A stretch of DNA of 64,000 nucleotides, taken from contig CAWHHI010000004.1 in the NCBI GenBank assembly GCA_963829055.1, positions 768,001 through 832,000 of the forward strand, in the 5' to 3' direction. Each line of letters opens with the position of its first letter. The stretch's first letter is position 1. Origin of the DNA: an uncultured Gemmatimonadaceae bacterium (GTDB lineage Bacteria; Gemmatimonadota; Gemmatimonadetes; Gemmatimonadales; Gemmatimonadaceae). The position numbers and the translations under genes are program-made. Below are positions 306 to 60,600 of this stretch, in pieces. The notes beneath the pieces are model-generated. The model searched no databases. It worked only from the letters and a program-made list of their open reading frames with translations, and was not told the origin of the DNA.

Positions 306-341
306 GGTCGCTCCGCCTAACGATGGCCGAAGCTCGAGCGA

Positions 342-1499
342 CTAGACCCGAGCGGTGAGCCCCGCCAGGCGCTCCGCAGCTCGGTCGAGCGTCTCCTGCT
401 TCTTGCAGAACGCGAACCGGATCATGTTCTTGCCGCGTCCGCTGCCGGCGTGGTAGAAGCTCGAGCCTGGAACACCCGCGACGCCGACGTCCGCGGCCAT
501 CCATTTCGCGAACTCGACGTCGCTCTTGTCGCTCAGCGCCGAGAAGTCCGCGAGCACGTAGTACGCGCCCTCGGGAATCGAGAAAGTGAACCCCGCTTCC
601 GCGAGGATGGGCAGCAGCGAATCGCGGCGCGCGCGATAGTCGAGCGAGAGGTGATTGTAGTAGTCGGCGTCGAACGCCATGCCGACTGCCGCGGCCGCTT
701 GCAGTGGAGCGGGCGCGCCGACCGTGAGGAAGTCGTGCACTTTCCGGATCGCGACGCTCTCGCGCTCCGGTGCGATCGCGTAGCCGAGCCGCCAGCCTGT
801 GCAGCTGAACGTCTTGGACATGCCGGAGATCGTGACCGTGCGGTCGCGCATGCCGGGCCACGTCGCGAGCACGTGGTGTCCGCCAGCGTAGCGAATGTGC
901 TCGTAGATCTCGTCCGTGATCGCCCACACGTCGTGCTCCACGCACAGCTCGGCGATGACGCCGATCTCTTCACGCGTGAGCACGCGTCCCGTGGGGTTGT
1001 GCGGCGTGTTGACGATGATCGCCTTCGTCTTCTCGTTGAACGCGGCGCGCAGCACTTCGGGATCGAAGCGCCAGCTCGGTGCCTCGAGCGGCACGTAGCG
1101 TGGCGTCGCGTTCGCGAGAATCGCGTCGGGCCCGTAGTTCTCGTACCACGGCTCGAAGATGATGACCTCGTCGCCGGGATTGATCAGGGCGAGGAAGACG
1201 GCGGCCATGGCTTCGGTGGCGCCGCACGTGACGGTGATCTCCTTGTCGGGATCGACCGGCATGTCGTACCAGCGCCGGTACTTCTCCGCGATCCCGAGCC
1301 GGAGCGCCGGTGCGCCCCACGTGATCGCGTACTGGTTGATGTCCCCGTGAATAGCGGCACAGGCGGCTTCCTTCATCGCTTCGGGCATCGGAAAGTCCGG
1401 GAAGCCCTGGGCGAGGTTGATCGCGCCGTGCTGCTGCGCGACGCGCGTCATCTCGCGGATGACGGATTCCGTGAAGCTGGCGGTTCGGATGGCAGGCAT
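342..1499 (-). CDS. PLP-dependent aminotransferase class I/II (YbdL/kynurenine aminotransferase-like)
   Basis: INLAQGFPDF, NTPHNPTG, DEIY and SKTFSCTGWRLGY (PLP lysine) motifs. Confidence 0.93.
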   Translation of the reverse strand: MPAIRTASFTESVIREMTRVAQQHGAINLAQGFPDFPMPEAMKEAACAAIHGDINQYAITWGAPALRLGIAEKYRRWYDMPVDPDKEITVTCGATEAMAAVFLALINPGDEVIIFEPWYENYGPDAILANATPRYVPLEAPSWRFDPEVLRAAFNEKTKAIIVNTPHNPTGRVLTREEIGVIAELCVEHDVWAITDEIYEHIRYAGGHHVLATWPGMRDRTVTISGMSKTFSCTGWRLGYAIAPERESVAIRKVHDFLTVGAPAPLQAAAAVGMAFDADYYNHLSLDYRARRDSLLPILAEAGFTFSIPEGAYYVLADFSALSDKSDVEFAKWMAADVGVAGVPGSSFYHAGSGRGKNMIRFAFCKKQETLDRAAERLAGLTARV

Positions 1500-1625
1500 G
1501 AGGGGAAAGTGGCAAGAGCCCGCGGCGCAGGCTAGCCCTTGCCGCGATCTGCGGCCAGACTAGTCGTGGGGCTCGGCTCTCTGTTCGGGCCTCGACCAGA
1601 ATCTCACGCCGTCTGGAGCGCGCCC

Positions 1626-3787
1626 GTGGAACTCACCAGTCCTCGAAATCCAGCGTACCGTCGCGCGTCAGCCATTCCGCTGATCGTCACAGCCCTTGTT
1701 TGTCTCCCCGCGGTGGCTGCGCACGGGCAGTCCGCTGCTTCGACTCAGCCGGCAGCAGGAAGAGCGCTCGCGATCGAGGATTACTACCGGGTGAAAGGGG
1801 TAGGTTCGCCCGAGCTCTCGCCCGACGGTCGATGGGTGGCGTACACCGTTGCGACTCGCGTCGAGGCGACGAACGGCGAGACGAGCGAGGTCTGGCTGAC
1901 CTCGACCGATGCATCCGTGCCGAGTCGCCGCGTGAGCATCGAGGGGACGAATGGGACCGGCGTTCGGTGGACGGATGACGGTCTGCTGCACTTCGTTGCT
2001 GACGGCAAACCGAAGTCCGTCAATCCGGCGCAGCCCGACGTCGTGATCGAAGACTCTGTCGCCGGGCCGCCTGGAGCGAGAGGTGGTCGCGGCGGCGCCT
2101 CGGGCCGCGTGTCGCTCCCGAGCCCCGATGGGAAATGGACGGCCGTCGTGCGCGACACGCCGCCGCCCAAGCGCGAGACCACCTACGCCTCGGACTTCGA
2201 GAAGCGCCACGAGGAGCGGTTCAAGGGCGTCGAGTTCGACTGGCTCGATTTTCAGCGCGACGGTCAGCCGTTCCCGGTGCCGAACCGTCTCGATCCCTCC
2301 GTGAGTCCGCCGCAGGAGATCTTCCTGGTACCTAACGATGGAGGCGCCGAGCGTCAGCTGACGCGCCTGTCGCTGCGGCCGACCGGCGTCGCGTGGAATC
2401 GCGACGGCACGCGGCTGCTCTTCAGCGCCGACTCGAGCTATCGGACCGAGCGGGTGTACGGGGCGACGCAGATCTATTCCGTCTCGCTCGACGGTACCGT
2501 GCGCCGCCTCTCGGCCGACACGAACTACAGCTACACGGGTGCGCGATATTCGCCGGACGGCCGCTGGATTCTCTACACGCGTCAGCTGTCCACCGACGCG
2601 GTGATCCGCCGGAAGCTGGACCATGGCGGCGCGACAGATCTCGCGATCATGCCCGCCGATGGCGGTCCGGAGCGAGTGCTCACGGCCGACTGGGATTTCC
2701 TGCCGGCGTCGCCGGTGTGGAGTCCCGATAGCAAGTACGTGTATTTCACCGGCGGCGTCGGGGGAGCGAATCACCTCTTTCGCGTCCCGCCTAACGGTGG
2801 ACCCGTGGAACAGGTCACGAAGGGCGAGCGCCGCATCAATGGCGTGAGCTTCGACCGGGACTTCACGCGCATCGCATACACGGTTGGGCTCATCGAGTCG
2901 CCGCCGGAGATCTACACGGCGCGCATCGATGGCTCGGGGGAGGCGCGGCTCACGCACGTCAATGACGACTTCACGAGCGAGGTGGCGTTAGGCAAGGCGG
3001 AGCGCCTCCAGTTCAAGAGCAAGGACGGAACGCCGATCGAGGGGTGGCTCCTGTACCCGTATGGGTACCGTCCGAATGGCGGACCGTATCCGCTCGTCGT
3101 GAGCAACCACGGAGGCCCGCACGCGGCGGACGGCTACAGCTTCGACTTCAAGAATCAGCTCTTTGCCGCGAACGGCTACTTCGTGCTCGAAGTGAACTTC
3201 CGGAGCTCGACGGGCTACGGCGAGAAGTTCCTGTGGGGAACGTGGGGCGCGTGGGGCACGAAGGATGGCCAGGACGTCATGGCAGGCGTCGACTACGTGC
3301 TCGGCCGCGTACCGGCGGATCGCCGGCGCGTGGCGACGATCGGCCACTCGTACGGCGGCTTCATGACGAACTGGCTGATCACGCAGTACCCGGATCGCTT
3401 CGCGGCGGCGATTCCGGGCGCAGGCATCGTCAACTGGATGAGCGACTATGGCACGGCGGACATTGCGCGCACGAAGGAGACGGAGTTCTACGGCACTCCG
3501 TGGGAGGAGAAGGCGCGCGACGATCATGATTCGCCAATCACCGCTGACGTACGCGGGGCGGGTCAAGACGCCGACGCTGTTCATCAACGGTGAGATCGAT
3601 CAGCGGGTGCCGTATTCGGAAGCGGAGCAGATGTACGTCGCGCTCAAGAAGAACGGCGTGCCGGCGAAGGTGATTCGGTACGAGAACATGCCGCACAGTA
3701 TCTCGGGGTCGTGGAATCAGATCCACCGGATGCTGAACGAGCTGCACTGGCTGGATACGTATCTCAAAGACGCCGAAGGTGAGCTGA
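1626..3787 (+). CDS. S9 family peptidase (dipeptidyl aminopeptidase/acylaminoacyl peptidase), secreted; frameshifted
   Basis: Signal-like N-terminus, SPDGRW propeller repeats, HGGP and GHSYGG nucleophile; C-terminus (SPLTY..KTPTLFINGEIDQRVP..MPH) continues in another frame after about 3520; second probable indel near 3768; start uncertain. Confidence 0.88.
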
Positions 3788-3853
3788 GGCTGCAGGCTGC
3801 GCTGCGTGCTTGCTTCGGCGCGCGCGGGGCTGGTCTGGATCATCGCGGCGCTA

Positions 3854-4371
3854 GGCGCGGGCACTCGGCTCCGGTGGCCACGCGCTTACACGCCTCGAGC
3901 CGAGCGGGTACCGAACTCCGTGCCGGGAGAGTGGCTCGGCCCCGCTCGTCTCGGGGCTACGCGCGAGGCCCCCTCCGCCGAGCGCCCGCGCCCCCCGGTC
4001 ATGGCGCGCTCCGGGGCCGGCCGCTCGTCACCGCACGCACGCATCGCCGACCGCGCCGCGGAGCGGCGCGCCAGCGTGCAGCAAGTCCGTGGCTCCTCTC
4101 GGCCGGCACGACCCGCGTTAGGGCGCGCACTGGCTGGGTGCTGCTCGCTGCTTGCCCCGACGGTCGGGATGCGTACCAGGAGGCGGGGGTGTCGCGTCGT
4201 AGGCGTCGTTGGCGCGTAGCCCCGAGACGAGCGGGGCCGAGCCACCTGTCCCGTAGCACGGAGTTCGGTACCCGTCGGCTCGAGGCGTGTAAGCGCCTAC
4301 GGCGCCGGAGACGCGACACCCCCGCCGACAAGACAGCGATCCCGATCGTCAGCACGCGAGCAGCACCCAGC
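3854..4371. repeat. Two inverted copies of an approximately 84-bp structured element, each enclosed in its own long stem
   Basis: 3882-3964 is near-identical to the reverse complement of 4212-4296; flanking stems 3854-3869/3977-3992, 4182-4198/4310-4326 (perfect 17 bp) and 4133-4148/4356-4371 (perfect 16 bp). Confidence 0.85.
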
Positions 4372-4378: not shown

Positions 4379-4975
4379 TCAGCCGCGAACTTTCGCCAGG
4401 GCGTTCCGGATCAGCTCAGTCGCGCTCTGGGCACGGCCGTTCGTGTCGAGCGCCGCGCGCACGGCCTTGTCCGCATCCGCCAACGTGTAGCCTAACGACA
4501 CCAACGCCCGGATCGCGTCCTCCGCGCCAGCGCCCTCCGGGCGCGGGCCGCCGGTCGGTTCACCGCCCAGATCGTCCAGCTTGTCCGCAAGGTCGAGCAC
4601 CAGCTGCTCCGCCTTCTTGCGTCCAACACGCGGGACACTCTGCAGCGTCACGACGTCTTTCTCCCGGATCGCGCGCACCAGCCGTTCCGCCGAGAGCGCC
4701 GACAGCATACCTAACGCGAGGGAAGGGCCCACCCCCTTCGCATCCAGCACGCGCCGGAACACGCGCCGCTCGTACGGCGTCGTGAAGCCGAAGAGCTGCC
4801 AGCCATCCTCGCGCACGACCAGATGCGTGTGCAGCGTCGCCGTGTCGCCCACCTTGGGCAGGCCCTCGTACGCGCTCAGCGGAATCGAGAGCTCGTACCC
4901 AACGCCGCCTTCCGTGATGATCTCGACGTGGTCGAGCTCCTTCGTCGCGAGCCGCCCGAATACCTGTGAGATCAA
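4379..4975 (-). CDS. ruvA: Holliday junction branch migration protein RuvA
   Basis: TTG start overlapping the ruvC stop; GGVGYEL, LHTHLVVRED, LFGF, GVGP and VPRVGRKKAEQL HhH motifs, ALVSLGY. Confidence 0.95.
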   Translation of the reverse strand: MISQVFGRLATKELDHVEIITEGGVGYELSIPLSAYEGLPKVGDTATLHTHLVVREDGWQLFGFTTPYERRVFRRVLDAKGVGPSLALGMLSALSAERLVRAIREKDVVTLQSVPRVGRKKAEQLVLDLADKLDDLGGEPTGGPRPEGAGAEDAIRALVSLGYTLADADKAVRAALDTNGRAQSATELIRNALAKVRG

Positions 4976-8905: not shown

Positions 8906-10465
8906 ATGGCTCCCCCCGTAAAGTCTGTGCTGTGGGTCGATGACGAGGCTGACCTTCTCGAGTCGCACCGCATTTTCCTGCGCGAGAAGGGCTACGAGGT
9001 CGAAACCGCGACCAACGCCGACGATGCCGTCGAGCTGCTGAGGCGGCGTCCTTTCGACATCCTGCTGCTCGACGAGCAGATGCCAGGCAAACGCGGTCTC
9101 GAGACGTACAAGGAAGTTCGCGAGCTCGCGCCGAATCTGCCGGTCGTCATGGTGACGAAGAGCGAGGAAGACGCGACGCTCCGCGAAGCCCTGGGCGCGA
9201 ACATCCGCGACTACCTCGTCAAGCCGATCAATCCGCGACAGGTCCTCACTGTCATCACGCGGATTCTCGAAGGCCCACGCATTCGCCAACAGGCGATCGC
9301 GCGTCGTTTCGTCGAGCGGTTCCGCGCGATCGAGGTCGAGCGTGGGCGTGTCCTCGACTGGCGCGGTTGGGTAGAGCGCTACATCGAGCTGATGCAGTGG
9401 GACGTCGACCTCGCTTCCGCAGGAGAGTCTGGGTTATACGAGTCGCTGCGAGGCTTGTATCCGGACATGCATCGCGAGTTCGCCGAGTACATGCGTCAGG
9501 CATATCCGGCGTGGCTGCGCGATCTCGAGGGCGACCGGCCGCCGCTGTCGATCGACATCGTCGGGGAGTTCCTGCTCCCGATGCTGCAGCGCGCACGCTC
9601 CGCGGTGTTCATCGTCGTGGACTGCCTGCGGCTCGATCAGTGGCTCATCATCGAGCCGCTGCTGGCGCCGATGTTCGATGTCGAGCGCACGCACTACTAC
9701 TCGGTGCTGCCGACGGCGACGCCGTATTCGCGGAACGCACTCTTCAGCGGGCTCTTTCCCGGTGAGATCGCGGCGCGTTTTCCGGATTGGTGGGGCGAGC
9801 GCGAGGACGAGACGCTGAACGCCCACGAGCGCGAACTGCTCGAGGCGCATCTGCAGGAGCTCAACTCGCCGCGGGCGGTCAGGTACGCGAAGATCTCGAC
9901 CGCCGCGGACTCGGATGAGCTCGAGCGGCACATGCACAGCGCCATCGCGCCCGAAGGCGTGAGCGCGTTCGTATTCAACTTCGTCGATCTGCTGACGCAC
10001 GGACGCAGCGAGTCGGCGATCCTGTACGAAGTGGCGCGCGACGAGATCGCGTTACGGCAGCTCACTCTCCAATGGTTCCAGCGCTCTGCGCTCCTCGGCG
10101 TACTGCGTGAGGCGGCTCGACGGAAAGTGTCGGTGCTGCTGACGAGCGACCACGGCTCGATTCACTGCCAGACTCCCGCGACGGTGTTCGCGAAGCGCGA
10201 TGCGTCTGCGAATCTCCGCTACAAGTTCGGCGAGGACCTGCGCGCCGAACGACCGGAGCAGGCGCTGTTGTTCCCTAACGAGGATCTGCTGCGCCTGCCT
10301 CGGCGCGGCCTGGGCGCGAACACGCTGCTCGCGGTCTCGGACGGATTCTTCGTCTATCCGACGAAGCTGCGCGAGTACCAGAGCCGATATCGCGGATCAT
10401 TTCTCCACGGCGGCGTTACGCCGGAAGAATGCATCCTGCCGGTCGCGCTGCTGACGCCGAAATGA
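8906..10465 (+). CDS. PorX-like response regulator: receiver domain plus PglZ (alkaline phosphatase superfamily) domain
   Basis: VLWVDDE, LLDEQMPG, MVTKSEE receiver; VVDCLRLDQW, LPTATPYSRNALFSG, NFVDLLTH, TSDHG, FLHGG. Confidence 0.92.
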   Translation: MAPPVKSVLWVDDEADLLESHRIFLREKGYEVETATNADDAVELLRRRPFDILLLDEQMPGKRGLETYKEVRELAPNLPVVMVTKSEEDATLREALGANIRDYLVKPINPRQVLTVITRILEGPRIRQQAIARRFVERFRAIEVERGRVLDWRGWVERYIELMQWDVDLASAGESGLYESLRGLYPDMHREFAEYMRQAYPAWLRDLEGDRPPLSIDIVGEFLLPMLQRARSAVFIVVDCLRLDQWLIIEPLLAPMFDVERTHYYSVLPTATPYSRNALFSGLFPGEIAARFPDWWGEREDETLNAHERELLEAHLQELNSPRAVRYAKISTAADSDELERHMHSAIAPEGVSAFVFNFVDLLTHGRSESAILYEVARDEIALRQLTLQWFQRSALLGVLREAARRKVSVLLTSDHGSIHCQTPATVFAKRDASANLRYKFGEDLRAERPEQALLFPNEDLLRLPRRGLGANTLLAVSDGFFVYPTKLREYQSRYRGSFLHGGVTPEECILPVALLTPK

Positions 10466-10484: not shown

Positions 10485-12317
10485 ATGTATCGGCGCCTTC
10501 TGGTCTTCCTCAGGCCACATTGCTGGCGGATGGTGGGCACGCTCGCGTGCAACATCATCGCCGCCGTGCTGGACGTGTTCAGCCTGACGCTGCTGATCCC
10601 GTTCCTCAACCAGCTGTTCGGTCAGCCGAACATCTCGTCGGTCTCGGAGTTCCAGCGCCGCCTGCTCGGCAATCTGTTCGACGTCTCGAATCGGCACGTG
10701 GCACTGAGGAACATCATCGCCGTGATCCTCACGGCGGTCGTCCTCAAGAACCTGTTCGTGTGGGCGAGCGGACAACTCGGTGCGCGGCTCCAGGAGTACG
10801 TCACGCGTGACCTGCGAAATGCCCTGTACTCGCATCTGCAGCGCCTGCCGCTTGGTTACTTCATTCGTGTGAAGACGGGCGACATCCTCGCCCGCGTGCT
10901 GAACGACACGCAGCAGACGAAGCAGGTCATCACGCAGGCGGTCACGCAATCCGTGCAGAGCGTCGCGAACGTCCTGGTCGCGGTCGTGACGCTGCTGTTC
11001 ATGTCGTGGCGTCTCTTCCTGCTCGCCGCCGTCGTCGCGCCGCTGCTGATCGCGACACTCCAGCCGCTGCTGCGCCGGTTGCGGCGCGGCCATCGCCGAC
11101 TGAGCAACCAGTACGGTGAGATGACGGCCGTCGTTCAGGAGTCGGTGAGCGGCATCAGGCTCGTGAAGTCGTTCGCGGGCGAGGCCTACGAGGAGTCCCG
11201 CTTTCGCGAGGAGAGCAGCCGTTACGCACGAGGCATGGTCCGGGTGACCCGGATCTCGGTCCTCGCGCAGCCCATCACCGAAACGCTCGGAACCGCGATT
11301 GCCGTCGCCATTCTGTGGGTCGGTGCGCGAATGGTCGACAACGGTGCGATGGACGGCGCTACGCTCATCGCGTTCCTCCTCATCGTCATGCGCACCCTTC
11401 AGCCGCTCAAGCAGCTATCGCAGGTGCCGACGACCGCACAGCAATCACTCGCCTCTGCCGAGCGGATCTTCGAGGTCCTCGACAGCCCGACCGAGGCGAG
11501 CCTGGACCGCGGAACCGTCGCGCCGGCGCGATTCGAGCGAGCGCTCGAGTTCGAGCGTGTCTCGTTCGCGTACGACAAGGAGCTGGTCCTCACGGATGTC
11601 TCGCTCGTGGCCGCCAAAGGCGATGTCATCGCGCTCGTCGGCGCGAGCGGAGCCGGGAAGAGCACGCTCGTCGATCTCATCCCGCGCTTCTACGAACCGA
11701 CCTCGGGGCGCATCCTGCTCGACGGCGTCGACACGCGCGAGATCGCGTTGCCTGCACTTCGATCGTTCATCGGGATCGTGAGTCAGGATACGGTGCTGTT
11801 CAACGATACCGTTAGGCACAACCTCGCGTACGGCGCCGCCGGCAAGTATTCGGACGAGCAGATCGAGCAAGCCGCGCGTGCGGCGAACGCGCACAAGTTC
11901 ATCGCCGAGCTTCCCGACGGCTACAATACGGTGCTCGGCGAGCGCGGGACGCGGCTGTCCGGCGGTCAACGGCAGCGGCTGTCGATCGCCCGCGCACTGC
12001 TCGTCGACCCGCCGATTCTCATCCTCGACGAGGCGACGTCCGCGCTCGACACGGAGTCCGAACGGCTCGTGCAGGAAGCGATCGACCGACTGCTCGAAGG
12101 GCGGACTGTGTTCGTCATCGCGCACCGGCTATCCACGATCGCCCATGCCGATCAAATTCTGGTGATGGATCGTGGGCGGGTGGTCGAGCACGGAACGCAC
12201 AGCGCTCTGCTGGCGCGCCGTGGCCATTATCATCGCCTGCACACCCTGCAGTTTGCCGACGGTCACAATGCCGACGCCATGTTTCAGCCGGCCGAGTCCC
12301 CAGTCCCCAGTCCCTGA
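10485..12317 (+). CDS. msbA: ABC transporter permease/ATPase fusion, lipid A flippase MsbA-like
   Basis: TM domain plus GASGAGKS, LSGGQRQR, ILILDEATSALD, IAHRLST; LPS gene context. Confidence 0.85.
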   Translation: MYRRLLVFLRPHCWRMVGTLACNIIAAVLDVFSLTLLIPFLNQLFGQPNISSVSEFQRRLLGNLFDVSNRHVALRNIIAVILTAVVLKNLFVWASGQLGARLQEYVTRDLRNALYSHLQRLPLGYFIRVKTGDILARVLNDTQQTKQVITQAVTQSVQSVANVLVAVVTLLFMSWRLFLLAAVVAPLLIATLQPLLRRLRRGHRRLSNQYGEMTAVVQESVSGIRLVKSFAGEAYEESRFREESSRYARGMVRVTRISVLAQPITETLGTAIAVAILWVGARMVDNGAMDGATLIAFLLIVMRTLQPLKQLSQVPTTAQQSLASAERIFEVLDSPTEASLDRGTVAPARFERALEFERVSFAYDKELVLTDVSLVAAKGDVIALVGASGAGKSTLVDLIPRFYEPTSGRILLDGVDTREIALPALRSFIGIVSQDTVLFNDTVRHNLAYGAAGKYSDEQIEQAARAANAHKFIAELPDGYNTVLGERGTRLSGGQRQRLSIARALLVDPPILILDEATSALDTESERLVQEAIDRLLEGRTVFVIAHRLSTIAHADQILVMDRGRVVEHGTHSALLARRGHYHRLHTLQFADGHNADAMFQPAESPVPSP

Positions 12318-12328: not shown

Positions 12329-13439
12329 TTGCGCGTTCTGTTCTACTACTCGCCGGGTGAGTGGTCGGGAAGCGCACGCGCGTTTGCCGCCGCCGCGGTC
12401 GCGATGGCTGGCCGCGGCTACCAGTGCACGTACGTGTGCCGGGCGGACAGCACGGTCGAGGATCGCCTAACGCCGGGCGCGGAGAAGCTGCCGGGTGTGG
12501 AGCTGACCCCGATGCCGATGGGCGGCCCGTGGATGCACGAGAGTCTGCGACTGCGGCAGGTACTGCTCGAGCACTACGTCGAAGTCGTGTTCGTGCATTC
12601 GGAACGCGAGCAGCTGGTGGCGTCGCTCGCGATTCGTCTCGCCGAACGGGCGGCGCTCGTGCGCCGCGTGCCGGCGGGGATGAAGCTCGCGCGCGGGCCC
12701 GAAGCGAAGCTGGGCGAACGGCTGGCCGCCACCGGCTATCTGTTCACGACGGAGCCGCCAGGCGGGAACGGCTGCGGTGTCGCGGGGTGCCTTCGAGCCG
12801 GTCGCGGCTGACGTCGGCGTCTCCGTCGAATCGATCGAACAGGTTCGCCCCGCACCACTCGCCGCGATCGGCGCGAGCGGTGGGAATCAGCTCATCGCGT
12901 GCGTGTACGATCCGACCGCTCGACGCCGCGTAGGCGCGCTTCTTCGCGCGGTGGCATTGCTCGCGCCGCGCCACCCCGGGCTTCGCCTCGCCATCGTTGG
13001 CCCCGGGTCCGAGGACGAAGACCTGCGCATGCATGCCGCCGCGTTAGGGATCACCGAGATCGTTGCGCACCTCGGCCAGCGCCCGGACCAGCAGTCGGTG
13101 CTCTCGGCCGCGGAGCTCGCGTGGGTTGCCGCCGGAGGGGACAACGCCGCGTTCGGCTACCTCGACCTCATGGCGCTTCGCGTCCCGGTTCTCGCGGAGC
13201 GCGACACACTGTCGCAGCGGTACGTCGCCGACGGCATCTCGGGGATGCTGCTGGCGCAGCCGGATCCCGGCACCATGGCGGCGCGGATCGCCGTGCTGCT
13301 CGCGCACGAAGAGCGACGCGTCGCCATGGGGAGCGCCGGCCGCGCGCGGGTGAGCCGTGATTTCTCCGAGGAAGGGATGATCGACGGCTTCGAGCGCGCC
13401 ACGGAGATCGCTCGGGACCGGAAGCGTTGGCGAACGTGA
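12329..13439 (+). CDS. Glycosyltransferase family 4 (GT-B)-like protein, divergent; frameshifted near 12760-12780
   Basis: Two adjoining ORFs (12329-12811, 12777-13439) give N- and C-domains: LAIVGPG, LDLMALRVPV, DGISGML, MGSAGRARV..FS. Confidence 0.75.
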
Positions 13440-17488: not shown

Positions 17489-18835
<1,347 letters not shown>

Positions 18836-29357: not shown

Positions 29358-29363
29358 GACCGC

Positions 29364-40522: not shown

Positions 40523-40535
40523 GGGAGATGGTGTG

Positions 40536-44032: not shown

Positions 44033-44074
44033 CGCGAACAGTTCCTTTCTTGCGGCCAGCATCAAGGACACTGC

Positions 44075-47413: not shown

Positions 47414-47433
47414 TTGGTAGGCAAGACGTACAG

Positions 47434-47467
47434 AGAAGCCGGCCGAGAGGCCGGCTTCTTTGTTTTC
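47434..47467 (+). terminator. Intrinsic terminator after the basic peptide gene
   Basis: AGAAGCCGGCC-GAGA-GGCCGGCTTCT followed by TTGTTTT. Confidence 0.85.
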
Positions 47468-47486
47468 TGCCCGACGAATGAACTGA

Positions 47487-48471: not shown

Positions 48472-49517
48472 GTTTCTTCTCCGCGGGGATTCCCGTGTAG
48501 TGCGTCGGTGAGTCGATAGTTCATCATCACGGCGGTGCCGAAGGCCGTGAGCTCGATGAGGGTCGATGCATCGAGCCCGCGCACGCGCAGCTCGAGCGCC
48601 GCGGAACGCTGGATAAGGAAGTCGATGAATGCACGAACGGTGATCGTGCTCTCGCCCGTCCAGTACGCGATGCGCGACACGATCTCGCGCCGATGCCGGC
48701 GAATGAACTCGGTCGCGACTTCGCCGTCCGGCGCCTCCTCCGCGGATCCGAAGAGCGTGCGCAGGTCGCCGTCGAAATGCCGTTCGTCGTCGAGCGGCAA
48801 CGGCTCGTCGAGACTTCGATAGTGCTCGGCGAGCGTGTACTGCATCGACTCGACAGGCAGGTCATCTTCTCCGGGCACGCCGACCGTGGGCGGGTCGTCG
48901 CCCAGGTCCTGCATAACGCGATCGACGTATTCGAGCTTCGCCAGCGCCGGCCACCCTGCGTACTCCGTTCTCCAATCCCGCCCAGGCGTGAGCCACACCG
49001 CGAACGACTCGGCGAAGTCCTCGTCCGGGTGCTTCTGCGCATACCAGCCGAGAATGTGGCGCACGTACTCGCGCGAGAACGGGTTCGCGCGGAACCGGTC
49101 GCGATACGGGCGCGAATACGGGCCGAAGATGCGGCGCCAGTCAGCGCGGTCGTAGAGGCGGTACGCGTAGTTGAACGCATGGCCGGCCTCGTGACGTAGG
49201 AAGCGCATCACGTCGACTTCCGATTCCACCTCGACGGCCAACTCCTCCTCGATGCGTGCGAGTCGCTGGTCGGCGAGATAGAACGGGATTCCAATGAGTG
49301 GCGTGTCGTCCGGGCATCCCCACTCATCGCTCAGGTAGACCGGCGGGTGGAAGCGCAGCCCCTTCGCATCGAGCTCGGCGTAGAGGCGATCGACGTACTT
49401 CTCCACGAGCGACCCGCTGATAGACAGGCCAAGCTCCGATATCCGCCGATCCAACAACGATCGGCGCTCTCCCTCCCAGTCATTCGACGAGTCATGCACG
49501 AGGTCGTGAGAAGGCAA
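48468..49517 (-). CDS. Putative zinc-binding metallopeptidase
   Basis: YLSDEW, GIPFYL, LRHEAGH (HExxH), YAQKHPDEDFAESFAVWL, KLEYV; GTGA overlap with the ATP-grasp gene. Confidence 0.85.
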   Translation of the reverse strand: MPSHDLVHDSSNDWEGERRSLLDRRISELGLSISGSLVEKYVDRLYAELDAKGLRFHPPVYLSDEWGCPDDTPLIGIPFYLADQRLARIEEELAVEVESEVDVMRFLRHEAGHAFNYAYRLYDRADWRRIFGPYSRPYRDRFRANPFSREYVRHILGWYAQKHPDEDFAESFAVWLTPGRDWRTEYAGWPALAKLEYVDRVMQDLGDDPPTVGVPGEDDLPVESMQYTLAEHYRSLDEPLPLDDERHFDGDLRTLFGSAEEAPDGEVATEFIRRHRREIVSRIAYWTGESTITVRAFIDFLIQRSAALELRVRGLDASTLIELTAFGTAVMMNYRLTDALHGNPRGEET

Positions 49518-49536
49518 GGCGCATACCGACTTGCCG

Positions 49537-49566
49537 AAAAAGAAAACCCCGCCATTGCTGGCGGGG
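49537..49566 (-). terminator. Intrinsic terminator
   Basis: Minus strand CCCCGCCA-GCAA-TGGCGGGG-TTTTCTTTTT. Confidence 0.85.
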
Positions 49567-49594
49567 CTGATAGATCGGTCGGGTGTAGTCGCTG

Positions 49595-49750
49595 TTACGC
49601 GGCTCGCGGCTCCGCCACCGCCGGCGCAACGTCGCCCACCTGGCTCCAGACATACGCCGCGAATCTCGGTGTGCTTTCGCCTCGACTGCCGCGCGAGATC
49701 ACGATCCCCATGGGCTCGTCGTTCGGCCAGCTCTCACGAATATCAGTCAT
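49595..49750 (-). CDS. Small hypothetical protein (51-54 aa)
   Basis: Manual translation MTDIRESWPNDEPMGIVISRGSRGESTPRFAAYVWSQVGDVAPAVAEPRAA*; GGAG 9 nt upstream; terminator downstream. Confidence 0.6.
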   Translation of the reverse strand: MTDIRESWPNDEPMGIVISRGSRGESTPRFAAYVWSQVGDVAPAVAEPRAA

Positions 49751-50020
49751 CGTCGTCATCTCCGAGTCAGGGAAGCCGGCAGATCACAATCGGCTCCCAG
49801 TGCACTAGCGCGTTGGACTACGGCTGCTTGCGCTGCTTTGTGTCGAGCTTGCTGACGACGACAGGCGGCCGATGCTCCACGAGAACGGGTCGCGGGCTCG
49901 ACCGCCTGTCATCCCACCTTCTATAAAGAGAAGGGGTCGTATCAGCACCCCCGCTCATAGCACCGGTGGTGCCATTGCGTACTTGCGAGACGCAAGTGCT
50001 TTTCTGACAATCACATACAC

Positions 50021-50050
50021 AAAACAAAGCCGACGCCAACGGCGCCGGCT
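50021..50050 (-). terminator. Probable intrinsic terminator
   Basis: Minus strand AGCCGGCGCC-GTT-GGCGTCGGCT followed by TTGTTTT. Confidence 0.65.
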
Positions 50051-50091
50051 GTCTCAAAAAGACACACTCGCAGAGGACACTTCGTATCAAT

Positions 50092-50874
50092 TCATGACGA
50101 CTCGGCGACTGCCTTGCGGGCGAAGAACGTTGGGGACGCCGAGTCTTCGCGCTCGACAGAGATGGACCAGCCACGGTACTGGGCGCGGAGTTCCTCGATC
50201 GTGAGCGCGGTCTGCCCAGCGACGATGGTCTCGACGAGATGAACCCCACCATCGAGTGTCGCACTCTGGAGCAGCTCGATGACGCGCGCCCTGTCGAGGT
50301 CGGACAATCCGACAAACGCGGCGGGCGAGCAAACGACGGCGGTGAGCGGGCCATCAGGAGCCCATTCACTAAGCGGGCTCATGAACGCGTTCACCTGCCG
50401 CGCCAGACCAACCGCCTCGGCCGCAATCATGACGCGCTCGACAACGTCGGGGGCGTCTCCAACGGCTGTGACCGTGCATCCATTCGCGGCGAGATAAAGC
50501 GTCGACTCGGATACCCGCGGTCCGGTGACCAGTACGTGTGCCTCCGTGCATGCGGAGATCGCGCGGACCAAGGGCGCGTCAGGCAGCATGCCCCAGTGTT
50601 CCGGCCGGCGGTACTCCGCGAGACGCTTCAGCCGACGGCGCTTCCATGCCGCGTAGTTCGGAATACGAAGGCGGCTCGTGATTATGCGGTCGACCTCCGC
50701 CCAGAGCACGAGCTCATCGAACGCTACCTGCTCTTGTGCGCGAAGCTTGGCGACGGCTTCATCGCCGATGCTGAGAATCGCCGAGCGCGGAATCGAGTCT
50801 TTGTAGTCCTCGATTTCCCGCTCCACGTACAGCTCGTATTCGTATTTGAGCGACCGGTGTTGTTGATGCGACAT
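50092..50874 (-). CDS. Hypothetical protein with degenerate class I SAM-methyltransferase-like C-terminal domain
   Basis: LYLAANGCTVTAV, LQSATLDGGVHLV and EELRAQYRGW resemble TehB-type folds but the GxGxG motif is absent. Confidence 0.6.
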   Translation of the reverse strand: MSHQQHRSLKYEYELYVEREIEDYKDSIPRSAILSIGDEAVAKLRAQEQVAFDELVLWAEVDRIITSRLRIPNYAAWKRRRLKRLAEYRRPEHWGMLPDAPLVRAISACTEAHVLVTGPRVSESTLYLAANGCTVTAVGDAPDVVERVMIAAEAVGLARQVNAFMSPLSEWAPDGPLTAVVCSPAAFVGLSDLDRARVIELLQSATLDGGVHLVETIVAGQTALTIEELRAQYRGWSISVEREDSASPTFFARKAVAESS

Positions 50875-50939
50875 GAACCTCGAAGCCGGAGCGCTAATCA
50901 CAAATGCAATAGTAGAACGACCGGTCGTATGCGCAAGTC

Positions 50940-51863
50940 TCAGCTTGGCTCGACATGGACGACTACTTCGGAAGCGCCGAGCGCTTCGGCGATGCGATTT
51001 TCGACTTCGTCAGCGATTTCGTGTGCGTCCGCGACGCTGGTCGAGCCAGCCACTCCGACCGTCACCTCTGCGAAAACGACGCCGGATGCACCGGCGCGCG
51101 AGCGCACGCTTCGAACCTCCTCGATCCGCGGAATGCTCTCCACGAGCCGCCGGACATCAGCCGAATCGAGACCACGTTCGTCCACCAGAATCGGAACCGT
51201 TTCCTTGAGGATCTGGTAGCCGTTTCGGGCGATGATGAGCGCCACAAGCAGTGCCAGCACCGGGTCGAGATGCCCCAAGCCAAATCGCGTCAGTCCAAGC
51301 GACGCGATGGCGAGCAGCGTGACGTACACGTCGCTATGCGTGTGGGCGGCGTCGGCAATGAGGAAAGAGCTCGCGAGCTCTCGCCCGCGTCGACGCTCGT
51401 AGACGACGATGAGGGCGTTGACCACCAGCGTGAAGCCGATCAAGCCGACTTCGAGGAGCGTGGGGGTCTCCGGCGAGTCGGATCGCCGCAGCTGCACGAT
51501 GCCTTCGCGCAGGAGCTCGAAGCACGAGATCGAGAGGAACGTGACGATCGCGAGTGCACCGAGCGTCTCGAACTTCGCGTGGCCGTACGGATGGCTTTCG
51601 TCCGGGCCGCGCGCAGCGACCGTGACGAGCACCATGCCGACGATGTTGTTGAACACGTCGAGCGATGACTCGAGCGCGGCTCCCAGGACCGAGAGCGCGC
51701 CTGTCCTGAGGCCGACCATTACCTTGATCGCGACGACGATCAGGTTGAGCACGAGCACGCGTGCGAGCACGCCGCGCACGGCGGACGGGCGCGCCGTGTG
51801 TGAGACCGAGGCGGCCGCCTCGGATGTTGGAGCTTTGCGTGGAGAAGGCGGCGCGGCGGTCAC
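50940..51863 (-). CDS. Cation diffusion facilitator family transporter (FieF-like)
   Basis: Six TM segments, PDESHPYGHAKFE, ADAAHTHSD, AHEIADEVE, VVVHVEP; start uncertain. Confidence 0.92.
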   Translation of the reverse strand: MTAAPPSPRKAPTSEAAASVSHTARPSAVRGVLARVLVLNLIVVAIKVMVGLRTGALSVLGAALESSLDVFNNIVGMVLVTVAARGPDESHPYGHAKFETLGALAIVTFLSISCFELLREGIVQLRRSDSPETPTLLEVGLIGFTLVVNALIVVYERRRGRELASSFLIADAAHTHSDVYVTLLAIASLGLTRFGLGHLDPVLALLVALIIARNGYQILKETVPILVDERGLDSADVRRLVESIPRIEEVRSVRSRAGASGVVFAEVTVGVAGSTSVADAHEIADEVENRIAEALGASEVVVHVEPS

Positions 51864-51940
51864 GTCGGGAGTTTCACCGGACGACAGAACCGTGTCAACG
51901 CCAATCCGTGAAATGGCGTGGACACGCCATGGGAGTTGGA

Positions 51941-52724
51941 ATGCCTGAGCTACCCGAAGTCGAGTATGCGTCGCGCGTGCTGCGGGCGGCGGTCGTGGGC
52001 CGGACGATCGGCAAAGTGACGGTACTGCATCCATCACAGCGGCGGCAGTTACCTCCGCGTGATGTCGCGCGGCTGGTTGGCACGACGATCAGTACGGTCG
52101 AACGCCGCGGAAAGCACCAACTCATCGGTCTGTCGTCCGGGGATACGCTCGTGGTGCACTTTCGCATGACGGGGGATTGGCTCGTCGACTCGATAACGGA
52201 TGACGTCCCGCGCTTCGCACGGGTCGTCGTCGAGCTGACGGACGGCGTGCGGGTGTCACTCGTCGACCCGCGCGCGTTGTCGACCGTGAGCCTGCATCGC
52301 GATGGCGACGCATCGCTCCCTGTGCTCGGTCCCGACGCCGCCGACCCGACACTTAGTGTCGAGGCATTCGGCGTCGCGCTGTCACGGCGTCGAGCCGCCA
52401 TTAAGGTGGCGTTGCTGGATCAGCGTGTGTTGGCGGGGGTCGGGAACATCTACGCGGCTGAAGCACTCTGGCTCGCGCGCATCAACCCGCAGGCGGTGGC
52501 GTCCTCGTTGTCTGCGCGCGCGTCGCGTTCGTTTGCTCGAGGCCATTCGGTCGGTGCTCGACAAGGCGCAGCGGTCGAGCGGGCGCTATCGCGACGACGG
52601 TGTCGGCCGATTCGAGGTGTACGATCGGGAAGGGCTGCCGTGCACGCGGTGCGGCCACCGAATTCGTCGCATTGTGCAGGGTGGCCGCTCGACGTACTTC
52701 TGCCCGCACTGTCAGCGTCGTTAG
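51941..52724 (+). CDS. mutM: Formamidopyrimidine-DNA glycosylase; frameshift near 52510
   Basis: [30 protein letters not shown]; zinc finger [17 protein letters not shown] in shifted frame. Confidence 0.95.
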
Positions 52725-52753
52725 GCCGTCGTACCTAACGCCGAGTCGTGGCA

Positions 52754-53920
52754 TTAGTCCATCGCTTCCAGGATGGCGCCCTTGATGTACCCCGTTTCGG
52801 GGATCGTGAGAATCTCCGGGTGGTCGAGTGATTGACCAATCATCTCACGCAGCGACAGGCGCCGTCCGCTATCCGCGGCTGCGCGCTCGATCATCTCGAG
52901 GAACAGCGGCTTCGTGAGATGGTAGCTGCAGCTCGCCGTGTAGAGCGTTCCGCCGGGTGCCAGGAGCCGCATGGCGCGAAGGTTGATCTCGTGGTACCCG
53001 CGCAGGGCGCTCGTTAGGCTGGCTCTCGACTTCGCGAACGCCGGCGGGTCCAGCACGATGGTGTCGAACATCGCGCGCTCCCGCTCCCGGTCGCGGAGGT
53101 AGTCGAACGCGTTCGCCTCGACGCAATCGATCGTATCGAACCCGTTGCGGCGCGCGTTGTCCGCCGCTCGGGCGAGGGCGGCGGCGGAGCTGTCGATGGC
53201 GATGACGTGGTCGGCGTTTCGCGCGAGGTGCAACGCGAACGATCCGTGGTAGCTGAAGCAGTCGAGCGCTCGCCCTCGCGCGTAGGTGCCGATACGGCGG
53301 CGCGCCTCACGCTGGTCGAGAAACGCCCCCGTTTTCTGGCCGGTCCAGGGCGCCGCGAGGTAGCGCACGCCGTGTTCGTGAACTTCGATCTCCTGCGGAA
53401 CGTCGCCCGAGAGCAACGCCGTTTCGCGCGGGAGCCCTTCGCGGGCTCTGACGGGTGGATCGTTCCGCGCGAGGATGCCCTGCGCACCGGTGACGGCGAG
53501 CAGGGCGGCGACGACATCCTCGCGGTACCGCTCCAGACCCGCGCTCAGGAGTTGGACGACCAGCCATTTGTCGTAGCGATCGCAGACGAGTGACGGCAGC
53601 CCGTCGCCCTCGCCGTGAATCAGGCGGTAGGCGGAGGCGTCCGGTCCGATCGCGGTGCGGCGTCGCACGGCGTGCTCGATACGGTCATGCCACCAGTGCT
53701 CGTCGATGGTCGCGTCCGGATCGCGGTCGATGAGTCTGAGGGAGATCTCCGACTCGGGACTCCAGAGAGCGGTTCCGATCGGGCGGCGTCGATTGTCCAG
53801 GACGGTGACGGCAGCGGCGTCGGTAGACGGTGCGGTGATGAGGTCGCTACGAAAGATCCAAGGGTGGCCGTCGGCCCATCGTTGAGCTCCCTTGCCGGAG
53901 ACGATCGCGGTCGCGCGCAT
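52754..53920 (-). CDS. rlmI: SAM-dependent rRNA methyltransferase (RlmI family)
   Basis: GHPWIF PUA domain, HGEGDGLP, GQKTGAFLDQRE, FSYHGSF, VLDPPAF, ASCS, IPETGY. Confidence 0.88.
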   Translation of the reverse strand: MRATAIVSGKGAQRWADGHPWIFRSDLITAPSTDAAAVTVLDNRRRPIGTALWSPESEISLRLIDRDPDATIDEHWWHDRIEHAVRRRTAIGPDASAYRLIHGEGDGLPSLVCDRYDKWLVVQLLSAGLERYREDVVAALLAVTGAQGILARNDPPVRAREGLPRETALLSGDVPQEIEVHEHGVRYLAAPWTGQKTGAFLDQREARRRIGTYARGRALDCFSYHGSFALHLARNADHVIAIDSSAAALARAADNARRNGFDTIDCVEANAFDYLRDRERERAMFDTIVLDPPAFAKSRASLTSALRGYHEINLRAMRLLAPGGTLYTASCSYHLTKPLFLEMIERAAADSGRRLSLREMIGQSLDHPEILTIPETGYIKGAILEAMD

Positions 53921-54332: not shown

Positions 54333-57293
<2,961 letters not shown>

Positions 57294-57689: not shown

Positions 57690-57728
57690 GAAACGGGTCA
57701 CCCTAACGGGTGGCCCGTTTCTTTCTTT
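57690..57728 (+). terminator. rRNA unit terminator
   Basis: GAAACGGGTCACC-CTAAC-GGGTGGCCCGTTTC followed by TTTCTTT. Confidence 0.85.
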
Positions 57729-59111: not shown

Positions 59112-59243
59112 ACCTGGAGCCGGGAACGGGAACAGGGCACTGAGGCCGCCTGCTACGTGCGGGACGTGCCAGCCGAATCTGTTATTCGCTCGACCAGGAG
59201 CCCACCACATCAGCAACGCCATGACAAGAATACCCGCAACGAC

Positions 59244-59531
59244 AACGGCAACAGCAGGACAGGATGGCCAGGATTGGCAGGATTGACGAAGATGACCGCT
59301 CACGGCGGCTCGCGGGAGCGAGTCGCCGGGGCCTAACGAATGAAGGAACACATCGCAGGGCGAGTGGCGTCCCGAGCGGCCGCTCCTCTCATACTGGCCT
59401 CGTTGCGGGAGGGGCTTGGGCGCGACGCGGAGCCTCTGTTTCATCCGTCATCCTGCCAATCCTGTCATGTAGTTGCCGTTGCTGTTCGTCAATCCTGCCA
59501 ATCCTGGCCATCCTGTCCTGCTGTTGCCGTT
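59244..59531. repeat. 288-bp element with perfect 47-bp terminal inverted repeats (MITE/REPIN-like)
   Basis: 59244-59290 is the exact reverse complement of 59485-59531; arms contain ATCCTG(C/G)CA 9-mers; partial third copy near 59446-59480. Confidence 0.85.
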
Positions 59532-59591
59532 CTCATTCCGAGCCTCTCGAACGCTCGTTAGGCGCGCCGGGTCGGGCGCGACTCCGTCAGC

Positions 59592-60600
59592 TCAGTCGCG
59601 GCTCGGCGAACGCGGTGTCTCGCGACGAATCTGTTGGCGGGCTTCCGTGTGCTCCGAGAACGTTTGCCGGAATTCATGGTGGCCGTCCGGGTGTGCCACG
59701 AAATAGAGATACGGCACGCTCGCCGGAAACAAGGCCGCCTCAATGCTCGCGGCACCTGGCGAGGCAATGGGGCCCGGCGGTAGTCCCGGATGCTTATAGG
59801 TGTTGTAGCGAGAATCCACCTCGAGGTCCTTGAACAGGACCCGGTCGACGTGCTTGCCGAGCGCGTATTGAACCGTGGGATCCGCCTGCAGCAGCATGCC
59901 GATCTTGAGTCGATTGTGGTACACGGCCGAGATCACCGGTCGCTCCTCCGCGAGGCGGGCTTCCTTCTCGATGATCGACGCGAGCGTGATGATGTCGTGT
60001 CGCGACATTGCCAGCGCCTGGAGTCTCTCGTCCCACTCGGGCTTCCACACCTTCTCGAAGGTCGAGACGAGCATCCGCACGGCCTCCTGCGGTGTCGTGC
60101 CTTCCGCGAACGTGTACGTATCGGGAAAGAGGTAGCCCTCGAGCGTCGGCGTGGGCACGTCGAGGCGACGGCGAAGCGCCGAGTCGCTGGCTGCAACGAC
60201 GATGGATTCCGGGGGCACCGACAGTGCTCGGCCGAGCAACGGCGCGATGGCGCCAAGGGCGAAGCCCTCGGGAATCGTCACCGTGTGGACGAGCCCTTTG
60301 CCGCGCGTGAGCGCGTCGAGGACTGCGTTCCACGACGAGCCGTCGCGGAAGACGTACGTCCCTGCCTTGAGATCGCGATCACGGCCCCGCGCCGAGGCGT
60401 AGAGGCGGAAGATGCGCGGGGCCGGAGATGACGCCGGCGTGCGCGAGGGAGTCGATCGCGCTGCTGAAGCTCGAGCCCGCGGGAATCGTCACGCGAACGC
60501 TCCCGCCACGCGACGAGCCGCTGCACGCGCCGCTGACGATCAGCGCCGCTGTGCACAGGCCCCCGACGAGGCGGCGCCTAACGTGGAAGCGAGAGCGCAT
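59592..60600 (-). CDS. mltG: Endolytic transglycosylase MltG; frameshift near 60418
   Basis: VTIPAG, LKAGTY, VTIPEG, LEGYLFPDTY, LASIIEKE, LQADPTVQY, YNTY..GLPPGPIASPG, YLYFVA. Confidence 0.95.

Follow-up and report, generated by a model that had tools for sequence, protein, structure and literature searches.

An over-represented octamer conserved across genomes of the order Gemmatimonadales and its possible role as a tag for homologous recombination

The word in the analysed window

The stretch of DNA analysed here, referred to as the window, comprises 64,000 nucleotides of an uncultured Gemmatimonadaceae bacterium (assembly GCA_963829055.1, contig CAWHHI010000004.1, positions 768,001 to 832,000); the genome to which it belongs is called G000. 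Besides protein-coding genes such as ruvA, tyrS, fpg and mltG and a 23S rRNA gene, it contains many copies of a heptamer, CCTAACG on one strand or CGTTAGG on the other, and this word is the subject of our study (Table 1). An earlier inspection of the letters, the sequence-only reading, had counted at least 38 copies. Our count gave exactly 38, with 20 on the plus and 18 on the minus strand, and every coordinate listed at that time was correct. Among 100 dinucleotide shuffles of the window (mean 3.51 ± 2.12, maximum 11), this number was reached in none (0/100). The copies were also said to be mostly coding and to use several frames, which agrees with the 31/38 copies overlapping genes called here: 28 lie within reading frames, in the contexts Pro-Asn-x, x-Leu-Gly, x-Val-Arg and x-Leu-Thr, and three on a stop codon.

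The same reading had reported no copy in the 23S gene or in about 37 to 52.7 kb, and we likewise found none in the gene and none between 36939 and 52719. This 15.8-kb stretch harbors five weak GCATAACG variants, compared to ~1.2 expected from the genome count. As the region is syntenic and motif-poor in congeners, recent transfer is ruled out as the cause of the gap. Two further claims stood only in part. The heptamer is indeed enriched, but the true unit is the 8-bp word GCCTAACG, seen in 27/38 window copies. The inverted pair at 52719/52734 is present but not typical, with only 15 opposite-orientation gaps below 50 bp among 6,371 neighbour gaps genome-wide.

Table 1. Copies of the word and other features of the window, and location of a methyltransferase-SNF2 gene pair elsewhere in G000. 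Three-letter entries are the encoded amino acids; G and L numbers are our handles for genomes and loci.
Feature	Position	Strand	Context
GCCTAACG	315..322	+	between called genes, beyond aminotransferase gene 3' end
ACCTAACG variant	2331..2337	+	peptidase-like gene, codons CCT AAC GAT (PND)
GCCTAACG	2789..2796	+	peptidase-like gene of 2331 site, PNG
GCCTAACG	2986..2993	-	peptidase-like gene of 2331 site, GCG TTA GGC (ALG); identical in L296
CCCTAACG variant	4116..4122	-	outside called genes; identical in L296
GCCTAACG	4490..4497	+	ruvA (SLG); identical in L296
ACCTAACG variant	4710..4716	+	ruvA (ALG); identical in L296
CCCTAACG variant	10274..10280	+	PorX-like regulator gene (PNE); kept only in G005
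GCCTAACG	11810..11817	-	MsbA-like ABC gene (TVR)
GCCTAACG	12465..12472	+	RLT; three congeners have instead a site 50 bp away
CCCTAACG variant	13042..13048	-	ALG; heptamer kept in G002, G004, G005
GCCTAACG	13789..13796	-	glycosyltransferase gene (RVR)
ACCTAACG variant	14381..14387	-	lipid A acyltransferase gene (TLG); congeners' site at 14435
GCCTAACG	14598..14605	+	lipid A acyltransferase gene (PNA)
GCCTAACG	15823..15830	+	OppC-like permease gene (PNV); kept in 3/4 congeners
GCCTAACG	17079..17086	-	ALG; kept in 3/4 congeners
GCCTAACG	17500..17507	+	near tyrS 3' end (IVR)
GCCTAACG	21191..21198	-	PHP-domain gene (GVR)
GCCTAACG	21680..21687	-	PHP-domain gene of 21191 site (LVR); kept in 4/4 congeners
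GCCTAACG	22913..22920	-	amidohydrolase gene (TLG)
ACCTAACG variant	23228..23234	-	amidohydrolase gene of 22913 site (PLG)
GCCTAACG	25331..25338	+	ALG
GCCTAACG	26285..26292	+	PLG; kept in 3/3 aligned congeners
ACCTAACG variant	26559..26565	+	ALG
ACCTAACG variant	28156..28162	-	sigma-54 activator gene (PNA)
GCCTAACG	29362..29369	+	overlaps TAG stop of - strand
GCCTAACG	30752..30759	-	PNE
GCCTAACG	33535..33542	+	NYN-domain gene (PNA)
GCCTAACG	34620..34627	+	NYN-domain gene of 33535 site (RLT)
GCCTAACG	35754..35761	-	between called genes; kept in 3/3 aligned congeners
GCCTAACG	36933..36940	-	final copy ahead of 15.8-kb gap
Heptamer-free stretch	36940..52718	.	kbl, tdh, fdhF, tldD/pmbA, ddl-like, CDF, fpg; GC 0.633
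GCATAACG weak variants	37743, 41497, 43073, 47232, 48911		inside heptamer-free stretch
GCCTAACG	52719..52726	-	near fpg 3' end (SLG); heptamer kept in 3/3 aligned congeners
ACCTAACG variant	52734..52740	+	on TAA stop; partner in rare inverted pair; not kept in congeners
GCCTAACG	53012..53019	-	rlmI-like gene (SLT); heptamer kept in 3/3 aligned congeners
23S rRNA gene	54335..57293	+	without copy
CCCTAACG variant	57702..57708	+	directly downstream of 5S rRNA gene
GCCTAACG	59331..59338	+	outside called genes
GCCTAACG	59556..59563	-	directly beyond mltG 3' end
GCCTAACG	60576..60583	+	overlaps TAG stop of ruvX
Methyltransferase-SNF2 pair	G000 C8:73.5-78.6 kb; L127:2878-8372		adjoins HAD hydrolase; frameshifted in this assembly

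Genome-wide abundance and coding context

G000 comprises 7.78 Mb in 20 contigs and is 86% complete. Clusters at 90% identity that include its proteins have members named Gemmatimonadaceae, and the sequencing runs containing the stretch are labelled soil, rhizosphere and freshwater sediment. Throughout this genome the unit is a non-palindromic octamer, GCCTAACG with its reverse complement CGTTAGGC, and its 5,004 copies amount to 49 times the expectation of an order-2 Markov model. The heptamer occurs 6,391 times (821/Mb, mean gap 1.2 kb), with 63-109 copies per 100 kb on every contig. Over all 6,391 copies, sequence information is limited to GCCTAACG, and the flanks are uninformative beyond 8-9 bp. 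Variants in one end base are still enriched (ACCTAACG 17-fold; GCCTAACA, the top last-base variant, 15-fold or, more exactly, 14.8-fold; CCCTAACG 9-fold), as is the core variant GCATAACG (8-fold), whereas most other core changes stay at or under expectation. With both ends changed, the enrichment is gone (0.2-1.0-fold), a pattern that resembles a threshold for binding more than the fixed site of an enzyme.

Codon usage was taken into account by ten synonymous-codon shuffles of 5,496 confidently called genes (our own gene caller covers 73% of the genome). The called genes contain 3,735 heptamers compared to 254-314 after shuffling, and the enrichment thus outlasts a codon-aware null about 13-fold. 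Within genes, the copies occupy silent positions. The word spells 61% of all Pro-Asn-[ADEGV] and 28% of all [APST]-Leu-Gly sites of G000, and it contains 59% of all TTA codons and 233/709 TAA stops. Even the tripeptide composition is skewed: PN[ADEGV] stands at 1.94-fold compared to 1.33-fold in a proteome of motif-poor kin (212,501 residues), and PN followed by any other residue at 1.00 compared to 1.39.

The density varies with the kind of DNA. It is zero in rRNA, reaches 0.46/kb in the most highly expressed 2% of genes compared to 0.73-0.79/kb in the middle bins, and climbs from 0.52 to 0.89/kb with the GC content at third codon positions (GC3). Furthermore, the word is absent from a foreign-looking stretch of 49.6 kb (contig C6:5.4-55 kb, L042-L044, GC 0.70). 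Fragmented genes and distant second copies of core genes lie in this stretch, which is probably foreign or chimeric DNA in the assembly. One-base deletion variants, a sign of basecalling errors at a modified site, were not enriched. The assembly itself has many frameshifts.

Conservation and origin of the sites

Orthologous positions were compared for 44 sites of G000 at ~79% nucleotide identity, resulting in 176 site-by-locus cells (neither cells nor kin are independent of each other). Sites were identical in 54.5% (96/176) of these cells, compared to 22.6% for all 7-mers, 16.8% for other TAA/TTA words and 13.6% for synonymous non-motif spellings; the conservation in relatives that the sequence-only reading had proposed as a check is thus evident. 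Where a site was lost in a relative, another one lay within 100 bp in 15/60 cases, compared to 0/59 where the site was kept and 9.6% for random positions.

An independent metagenome contig of the Joint Genome Institute (JGI) with 98.2% identity shows 5/5 sites identical. The word is therefore not an artefact of basecalling, a caveat raised with the original observation. Related JGI contigs contain 4-10 copies per 10 kb. In 2/4 runs, one site differs by a single silent base, which indicates that sites arise by point mutation. The site at 11810 is young: four congeners lack it, and within the species a silent change at 11814 makes it polymorphic. Maintenance of the word is positive and acts on the DNA itself, and point mutation at permissive codons creates copies.

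Orientation, spacing and local GC content

In genes, 1,781 copies are in sense and 1,954 in antisense orientation. With respect to replication, we assigned 1,629 copies to the G-rich and 1,697 to the other strand, based on the sign of the GC skew in the 20-contig assembly. The lack of strand polarity, for which Chi and FtsK orienting polar sequences (KOPS) had been dismissed, was therefore borne out.

Sites avoid each other at short range: their pair correlation is ~0.27 below 75 bp and 0.5 at 150 bp, and it approaches 1 by 300-500 bp. Control words show no such avoidance. Enriched end variants avoid perfect sites, whereas non-enriched core variants do not. In a null that keeps the coding opportunities, 237 ± 16 within-gene pairs closer than 100 bp are expected, compared to 44 observed, and the occupancy of [APST]LG is 3% where another site lies within 50 bp but reaches 39% at a distance of 0.5-1 kb. 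The avoidance holds in all four orientations and below 50 bp amounts to 0.14-0.18 for opposite and 0.36-0.40 for same orientation. Since a close second site is still several-fold over-represented, the avoidance suggests a diminishing return and not a prohibition. One copy partly meets the need over ~250 bp, and weak single-mismatch versions substitute for it. No helical phasing of the site spacing was found. At a distance of 15-75 bp from a site, four-fold degenerate positions exceed the mean GC content of the gene by 0.9-1.8 points, and by 250 bp they are back at this mean; controls stay within 0.7 points beyond 15 bp.

Range of the word and its dialects

The range within the family was tallied by hand as octamers per Mb in 251 genomes of 77 genera. 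Altogether, 89/251 genomes (32/77 genera) have 50-1,340 octamers/Mb, six have 29-38 and 156 have 19 or less. The tallies include the unpublished genomes G013, G084, G123, G202, G237, G238 and G316, of which only G238 is among the 89, and no conclusion depends on them. Genera are mostly uniform, with the exception of G295, which has 13/Mb within a genus at ~900/Mb. Two other families of the order also have rich genomes: in family f2, 4/97 are rich, all of one genus (g69), and in family f3 3/8; outside the order, 0/62 genomes exceeded 15/Mb. A closed genome, G243, contains 4,469 copies on all four replicons, including 17 in 20 kb on the 21-kb one.

Small lineage dialects exist. In G243 and G342, for instance, the first G is strictly kept. 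Samples of 60-151 kb from G295 and seven motif-poor genomes revealed no dialect based on another dispersed word. In G037 (L097-L098) and G026 (L095-L096), the leading words were clustered local tandem heptamers, which differ per genome and look somewhat like the short tandem repeats of cyanobacteria. Where arrays of copies were examined in motif-poor genomes, they turned out to be integron attC ends (L001, L002, L101). On the cassette-start strand of three arrays, GCCTAACG accounts for 31/40 RYYTAAC words; at the other end, GCCTAACA or GCCTAACC predominates. G000 itself encodes an integron integrase at the family cut-off beside small open reading frames (ORFs) with co-oriented GCCTAAC starts (L041, C20:200-209 kb), likely a chromosomal integron. 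A second, partial integron integrase is located at C4:2.9 kb.

A Rho-based contig scan, which mostly returned other phyla, gave 80 loci, of which a single one had more than four copies (L270, another phylum, seven heptamers in 21 kb). In the literature searched, neither the word nor any over-represented or uptake motif of Gemmatimonads was found, while supplementary k-mer or methylome tables could still contain it. The available text of two reports on marine Gemmatimonadota metagenome-assembled genomes of unstated order gives no methylated motif (PMC8919816, 10.64898/2026.06.24.734251). The word is real, genome-wide and conserved across an order, and it is not described in the literature searched.

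Phages and other replicons

Three pattern scans of IMG/VR, in which selection required two copies, returned at least 121, 42 and 48 stretches. Most matches were chance hits or one-strand arrays, and a few were rich on both strands. One of the latter was G224, a temperate phage integrated at tRNA-Pro(GGG) of a close relative of G000. Its 82 kb contain 87 copies, corresponding to host-level density, 74 of them within the 68.9-kb prophage part; 53 lie in genes, compared to 3.7 after shuffling. The variants rank as in G000, and the prophage has the dialect of its host group. The left end, including DNA upstream of the tRNA, is 91% identical to G000 over 161 bp, and a 46-bp att repeat lies beside the integrase. 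G224 also encodes three or four DNA methyltransferases, a Mom-like modification protein and an Erf-like annealing protein (L610-L614).

A second temperate phage, G223, has 37 copies in 45.6 kb, and terminase relatives at 56-58% were found only in a motif-poor genus. L522, L541 and L633 represent the tail and lysis genes of one phage lineage with ~3,000-3,400 copies/Mb; no evidence for the host of these three was found. In L522 and L541 the median gaps are 241-251 bp, and one gap is shorter than 100 bp compared to ~7 expected. By contrast, 78 relatives of this phage (41-44% identity) contain six copies in 870 kb, and a phage contig binned with the moderately rich G396 has none in 72 kb. A search of G000 for Terminase_6N gave no match, and plasmid searches returned no relevant record. 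Resident plasmids and a prophage carry the word, and the phage data lean towards a step after DNA entry rather than the cell surface. Four viral contigs of 46% GC (L578, L586, L589, L601) have lengths of 8-16 kb and contain 8-11 heptamers; two of them were compared with codon shuffles and reached about three times the shuffled mean, bearing in mind that the scan selects for two copies.

Candidate readers

G000 encodes a type IV pilus gene cluster, as read from protein N-termini. Several proteins were compared with the range of the word. Neither PF01555 nor PF02384 (five genomes each) co-distributes with it, and neither had a match in the 86% complete G000. The integron integrase (five genomes) does not follow the word either. 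Ku was found in 182/251 genomes and is missing in the motif-rich G164, G265 and G266, so that it does not match the word.

One candidate, not linked to the word, is an order-wide gene pair, in which a single-copy N6-methyladenine (m6A; gamma-class) methyltransferase of ~1,050 amino acids, resembling Eco57I, type IIG enzymes and DrmMI, is followed by an SNF2 helicase. It is present in 127/138 other genomes of the order, strongly in four more of families f4/f5 and weakly elsewhere. The catalytic NPPW is intact in 55/55 sequences, and the recognition region has near-invariant polar residues; no conserved nuclease residues were seen in either partner. Judged from these sequences, the pair looks like a housekeeping rather than a defence system. 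It became a candidate because its range bounds that of the word and the same word recurs in three families; having been found by seeking methyltransferases in rich genomes, it is a post-hoc pick. The pair is present alike in rich and poor genomes, including G295, and in an alignment of 12 rich and 37 poor genomes no column tells the two groups apart. A co-distributed methyltransferase or DNA-binding protein, which the sequence-only reading had proposed to look for, was hence not found among the candidates examined. Its proposed class of an uptake sequence, a HIP1-like motif or a nucleoid protein site fits the data, and for lack of such a reader the choice among the three rests on inference.

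Interpretation

To our knowledge, only a handful of dispersed hyper-abundant words shape bacterial genomes, namely DNA uptake sequences (DUS), uptake signal sequences (USS), the highly iterated palindrome HIP1 and Chi. Like DUS and USS, the word is short and non-palindromic, occurs about once per 1-1.2 kb on both strands, occupies silent codon positions, skews tripeptides, is scarce in rRNA and constrained genes, is conserved at orthologous sites, forms dialects and accumulates in resident prophages. In the available text of previous studies, the spacing is given as ~1 kb for USS and ~1.15 kb for DUS (PMC7811141, PMC2397512), and a tripeptide skew is described for both (PMC2817400). USS are under-represented in rRNA, constrained genes and new DNA, and two of them within 100 bp give no higher uptake than one (PMC7811141); prophages of Pasteurellaceae accumulate them (PMC7371117, citing its ref. 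83). The present word differs in its phylum, its sequence, its length of 8 bp without informative flanks and its strong neighbour avoidance below 250 bp in G000, and no ComP/PpdA-like reader was identified. It is scarce in foreign DNA as are DUS and USS, but the 82-kb prophage and the 21-kb replicon carry it at host density. HIP1 (GCGATCGC, cyanobacteria) is likewise a conserved octamer with deviations at the end bases, patchy loss among lineages and a suggested role in transformation, and is reported at hundreds to >1,000 per Mb, tens-fold over-represented (PMC4390886, PMC5861425, PMC13756078, 10.1101/2024.09.10.611283). Unlike HIP1, the word is not palindromic, could not be tied to any of the methyltransferases compared and shows a spacing signal of ~250 bp. 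Lacking both terminator pairs and a palindrome, it is neither a plain DUS nor a plain HIP1, though it resembles either.

We give a probability of roughly 0.5 to the explanation that the word is a tag of the DUS/HIP1 type, which biases which DNA enters homologous recombination. GCCTAACG/CGTTAGGC would then be an orientation-independent 'self' tag on double-stranded DNA, recognised by a putative sequence-specific protein conserved across Gemmatimonadales. In natural transformation, tagged DNA would have an advantage either in uptake itself or, once inside the cell, in being kept and recombined. If the transforming fragments are short (a few hundred bp), tagged alleles could spread by molecular drive, a second tag on one fragment would add little, and conversion tracts centred on tags would leave a GC halo. 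In lineages with weak or lost transformation, the word would not accumulate, or would decay. A recombination bias of this kind would account jointly for how dense the word is, for its placement at silent positions and its rarity in constrained or foreign DNA, for the redundancy of close copies, for the GC halo and for the patchy loss. It also agrees with the presence of competence machinery (ComEC, a ComEA-type protein and the type IV pilus gene cluster), which motif-poor genomes have as well.

Several observations weigh against it. One phage has ~3,300 copies/Mb, four times the density of G000 and more than passive drive easily yields. The competence proteins do not track the word: ComEC is present in 5/5 genomes and a ComEA-type helix-hairpin-helix protein in 63/63, motif-poor genomes included. 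A PilW-like minor pilin, the one pilin compared in 60 genomes, does not co-distribute with it, and this query had no match in five genomes of g69, the motif-bearing genus of f2. Moreover, the word is identical in three families, while pilins are only ~30-40% identical between genera. Inverted terminator pairs are not in excess, as follows from the 15 close gaps given above, whereas over 90% of inverted DUES pairs lie in terminators according to the available text of 10.1101/2025.10.24.684340. A neighbour within 100 bp was found for only 4.7% of sites, compared to 23% reported for the USS of H. influenzae (PMC7811141, available text). The avoidance is weak in five other motif-rich genomes, of which 12 stretches of 15-20 kb were pooled and gave 30 gaps below 200 bp compared to 42.5 expected. 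The word is depleted between divergent genes (0.47/kb) relative to convergent ones (1.64/kb). Finally, the GC halo is small and could also be caused by sites preferring GC-rich patches.

Some of these points are better explained if the word is the site of a nucleoid-organising or repair-loading protein that acts on or occludes ~250 bp and is selected directly in host and phage, with no role in gene transfer. This is a possible, though less favoured, explanation. An orientation-independent exclusion over that length, the tiling of L522 and L541 at 241-251 bp in a phage whose 78 relatives are nearly without the word, the depletion between divergent promoters, the presence on all four replicons of G243 and the graded, threshold-like mismatch tolerance all speak for it. 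A needed structural role is hard to square with a near-bimodal loss (156/251 genomes at 19/Mb or less, G295 at 13/Mb), neither helical phasing nor a candidate protein was found, and the phage contig binned with G396 has no copy. Such a site hence explains phage tiling and promoter depletion better than a recombination bias, and wholesale loss worse. Alternatively, and rather unlikely in our view, the word could be HIP1-like in that the order-wide m6A methyltransferase and its SNF2 partner act on it; uptake, recombination or repair would then read the mark, with abundance following the strength of reading. By analogy with type IIG/BREX-type sites, the methylated base would probably be the second A. 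Type IIG and BREX sites are asymmetric words of 6-8 bp with an A near the 3' end, and an enzyme related to type IIG, BREX PglX and DISARM DrmMI is here, with its helicase, a core gene of the order. Restriction targets are avoided, however, whereas this word is enriched in host and phage with graded tolerance, and the enzyme has no recognisable conserved nuclease residues. Pair and word enrichment are both confined to the order (the pair being weak elsewhere), NPPW and recognition region are conserved, most deviations affect the first or last base, as they do in HIP1 (PMC4390886, available text), and methylated HIP1 is reported to raise transformation (10.1101/2024.09.10.611283, available text). 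Against this, motif-poor genomes have the pair equally, without a discriminating alignment column, the pick was post hoc, and the inner hexamer alone is not enriched (0.2-1.0-fold), unlike a fixed enzyme site. A methylation-written tag overlaps both the recombination bias and the structural reading. One speculative and doubtful combination is a self tag read inside the cell: the nuclease-free methyltransferase-SNF2 machine might mark GCCTAACG and license ~250 bp around it for protection or recombination, soil lineages might have driven the tag to one per kb, and phages might tile their genomes to pass as self.

The remaining explanations carry little weight. The word could be derived from, or aimed at, integron sites, with a reader favouring cassette capture and drive spreading the word; it equals, letter for letter, the commonest attC start in three arrays of the order (31/40, all motif-poor), GCCTAACA is the top last-base variant in G000, and G000 has an integrase gene with co-oriented copies beside small ORFs. 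We regard this as improbable. The integron core and inverse-core consensus is GTTRRRY/RYYYAAC, but other RYYYAAC words are not enriched (GTCTAACG 0.4-fold, GCCCAACG 0.6-fold, GCTTAACG 0.5-fold), whereas CCCTAACG and GCATAACG, which depart from the consensus, are. Genomes in which the word is rare have these attC ends as well, and true attC sites are few, compared to thousands of isolated genic copies with no hairpin, cassette or conserved flanks. Many bacteria commonly have this word as an attC end, so that the match may plausibly be due to chance. Very improbable is a Chi-like polar signal for AddAB/RecBCD, in spite of the non-palindromic octamer inside genes and the finding that phages can over-represent Chi (PMC3784561, available text): there is no leading/lagging bias (1,629 vs 1,697), the range is ~250 bp and not kilobases, and copies of opposite orientation, which a polar system should not treat as redundant, keep apart no less strongly than copies of the same orientation. 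The word is also roughly four times denser than Chi of E. coli. Scarcely credible, finally, is an artefact, codon bias, mutational or repair bias or a mobile repeat. Frameshifts are many in this assembly, but the enrichment outlasts codon shuffling, the independent contig has 5/5 sites, and context-dependent mutation alone would not make sites avoid each other. Unlike REP (repetitive extragenic palindromic), tandem or mobile repeats, the word has no longer conserved unit, with uninformative flanks, and is neither clustered nor intergenic.

Why such words accumulate, by drive or selection, for uptake or chromosome structure, is still argued, and this word adds an independent case in a soil-abundant phylum. 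It comes with natural controls: a single family has ~90 rich and 156 poor genomes, rich and poor members contrast within one genus, one genome is closed, and phages occur both with the word and without it. A length scale of ~250 bp can also be measured. Should the word be a tag for uptake or recombination, self-biased natural transformation would be evidenced for the first time in Gemmatimonadota, and the tag would offer a direct way of making these bacteria transformable. Either way, it is a usable marker for binning and phage-host assignment.

Further observations

Other features of the window and of G000 do not concern the word. The 23S and 5S rRNA genes at 54335-57682 are not preceded by a 16S gene. 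Contig C12 has a lone 16S-sized repeat and C16 a 16S/23S-sized pair; the rRNA genes of G000 appear to be partly unlinked. At 7535-8775, a homologue of DnaB-like helicases scores far below the DnaB cut-off and is apparently split into two ORFs. A REP-like repeat at ~40530-40710 is common to congeners and has several hundred copies genome-wide. On contig C11 (315-326 kb, L128), gene N-termini, read by eye from the sequences, resemble RuBisCO, phosphoribulokinase and photosynthetic reaction-centre and antenna proteins.

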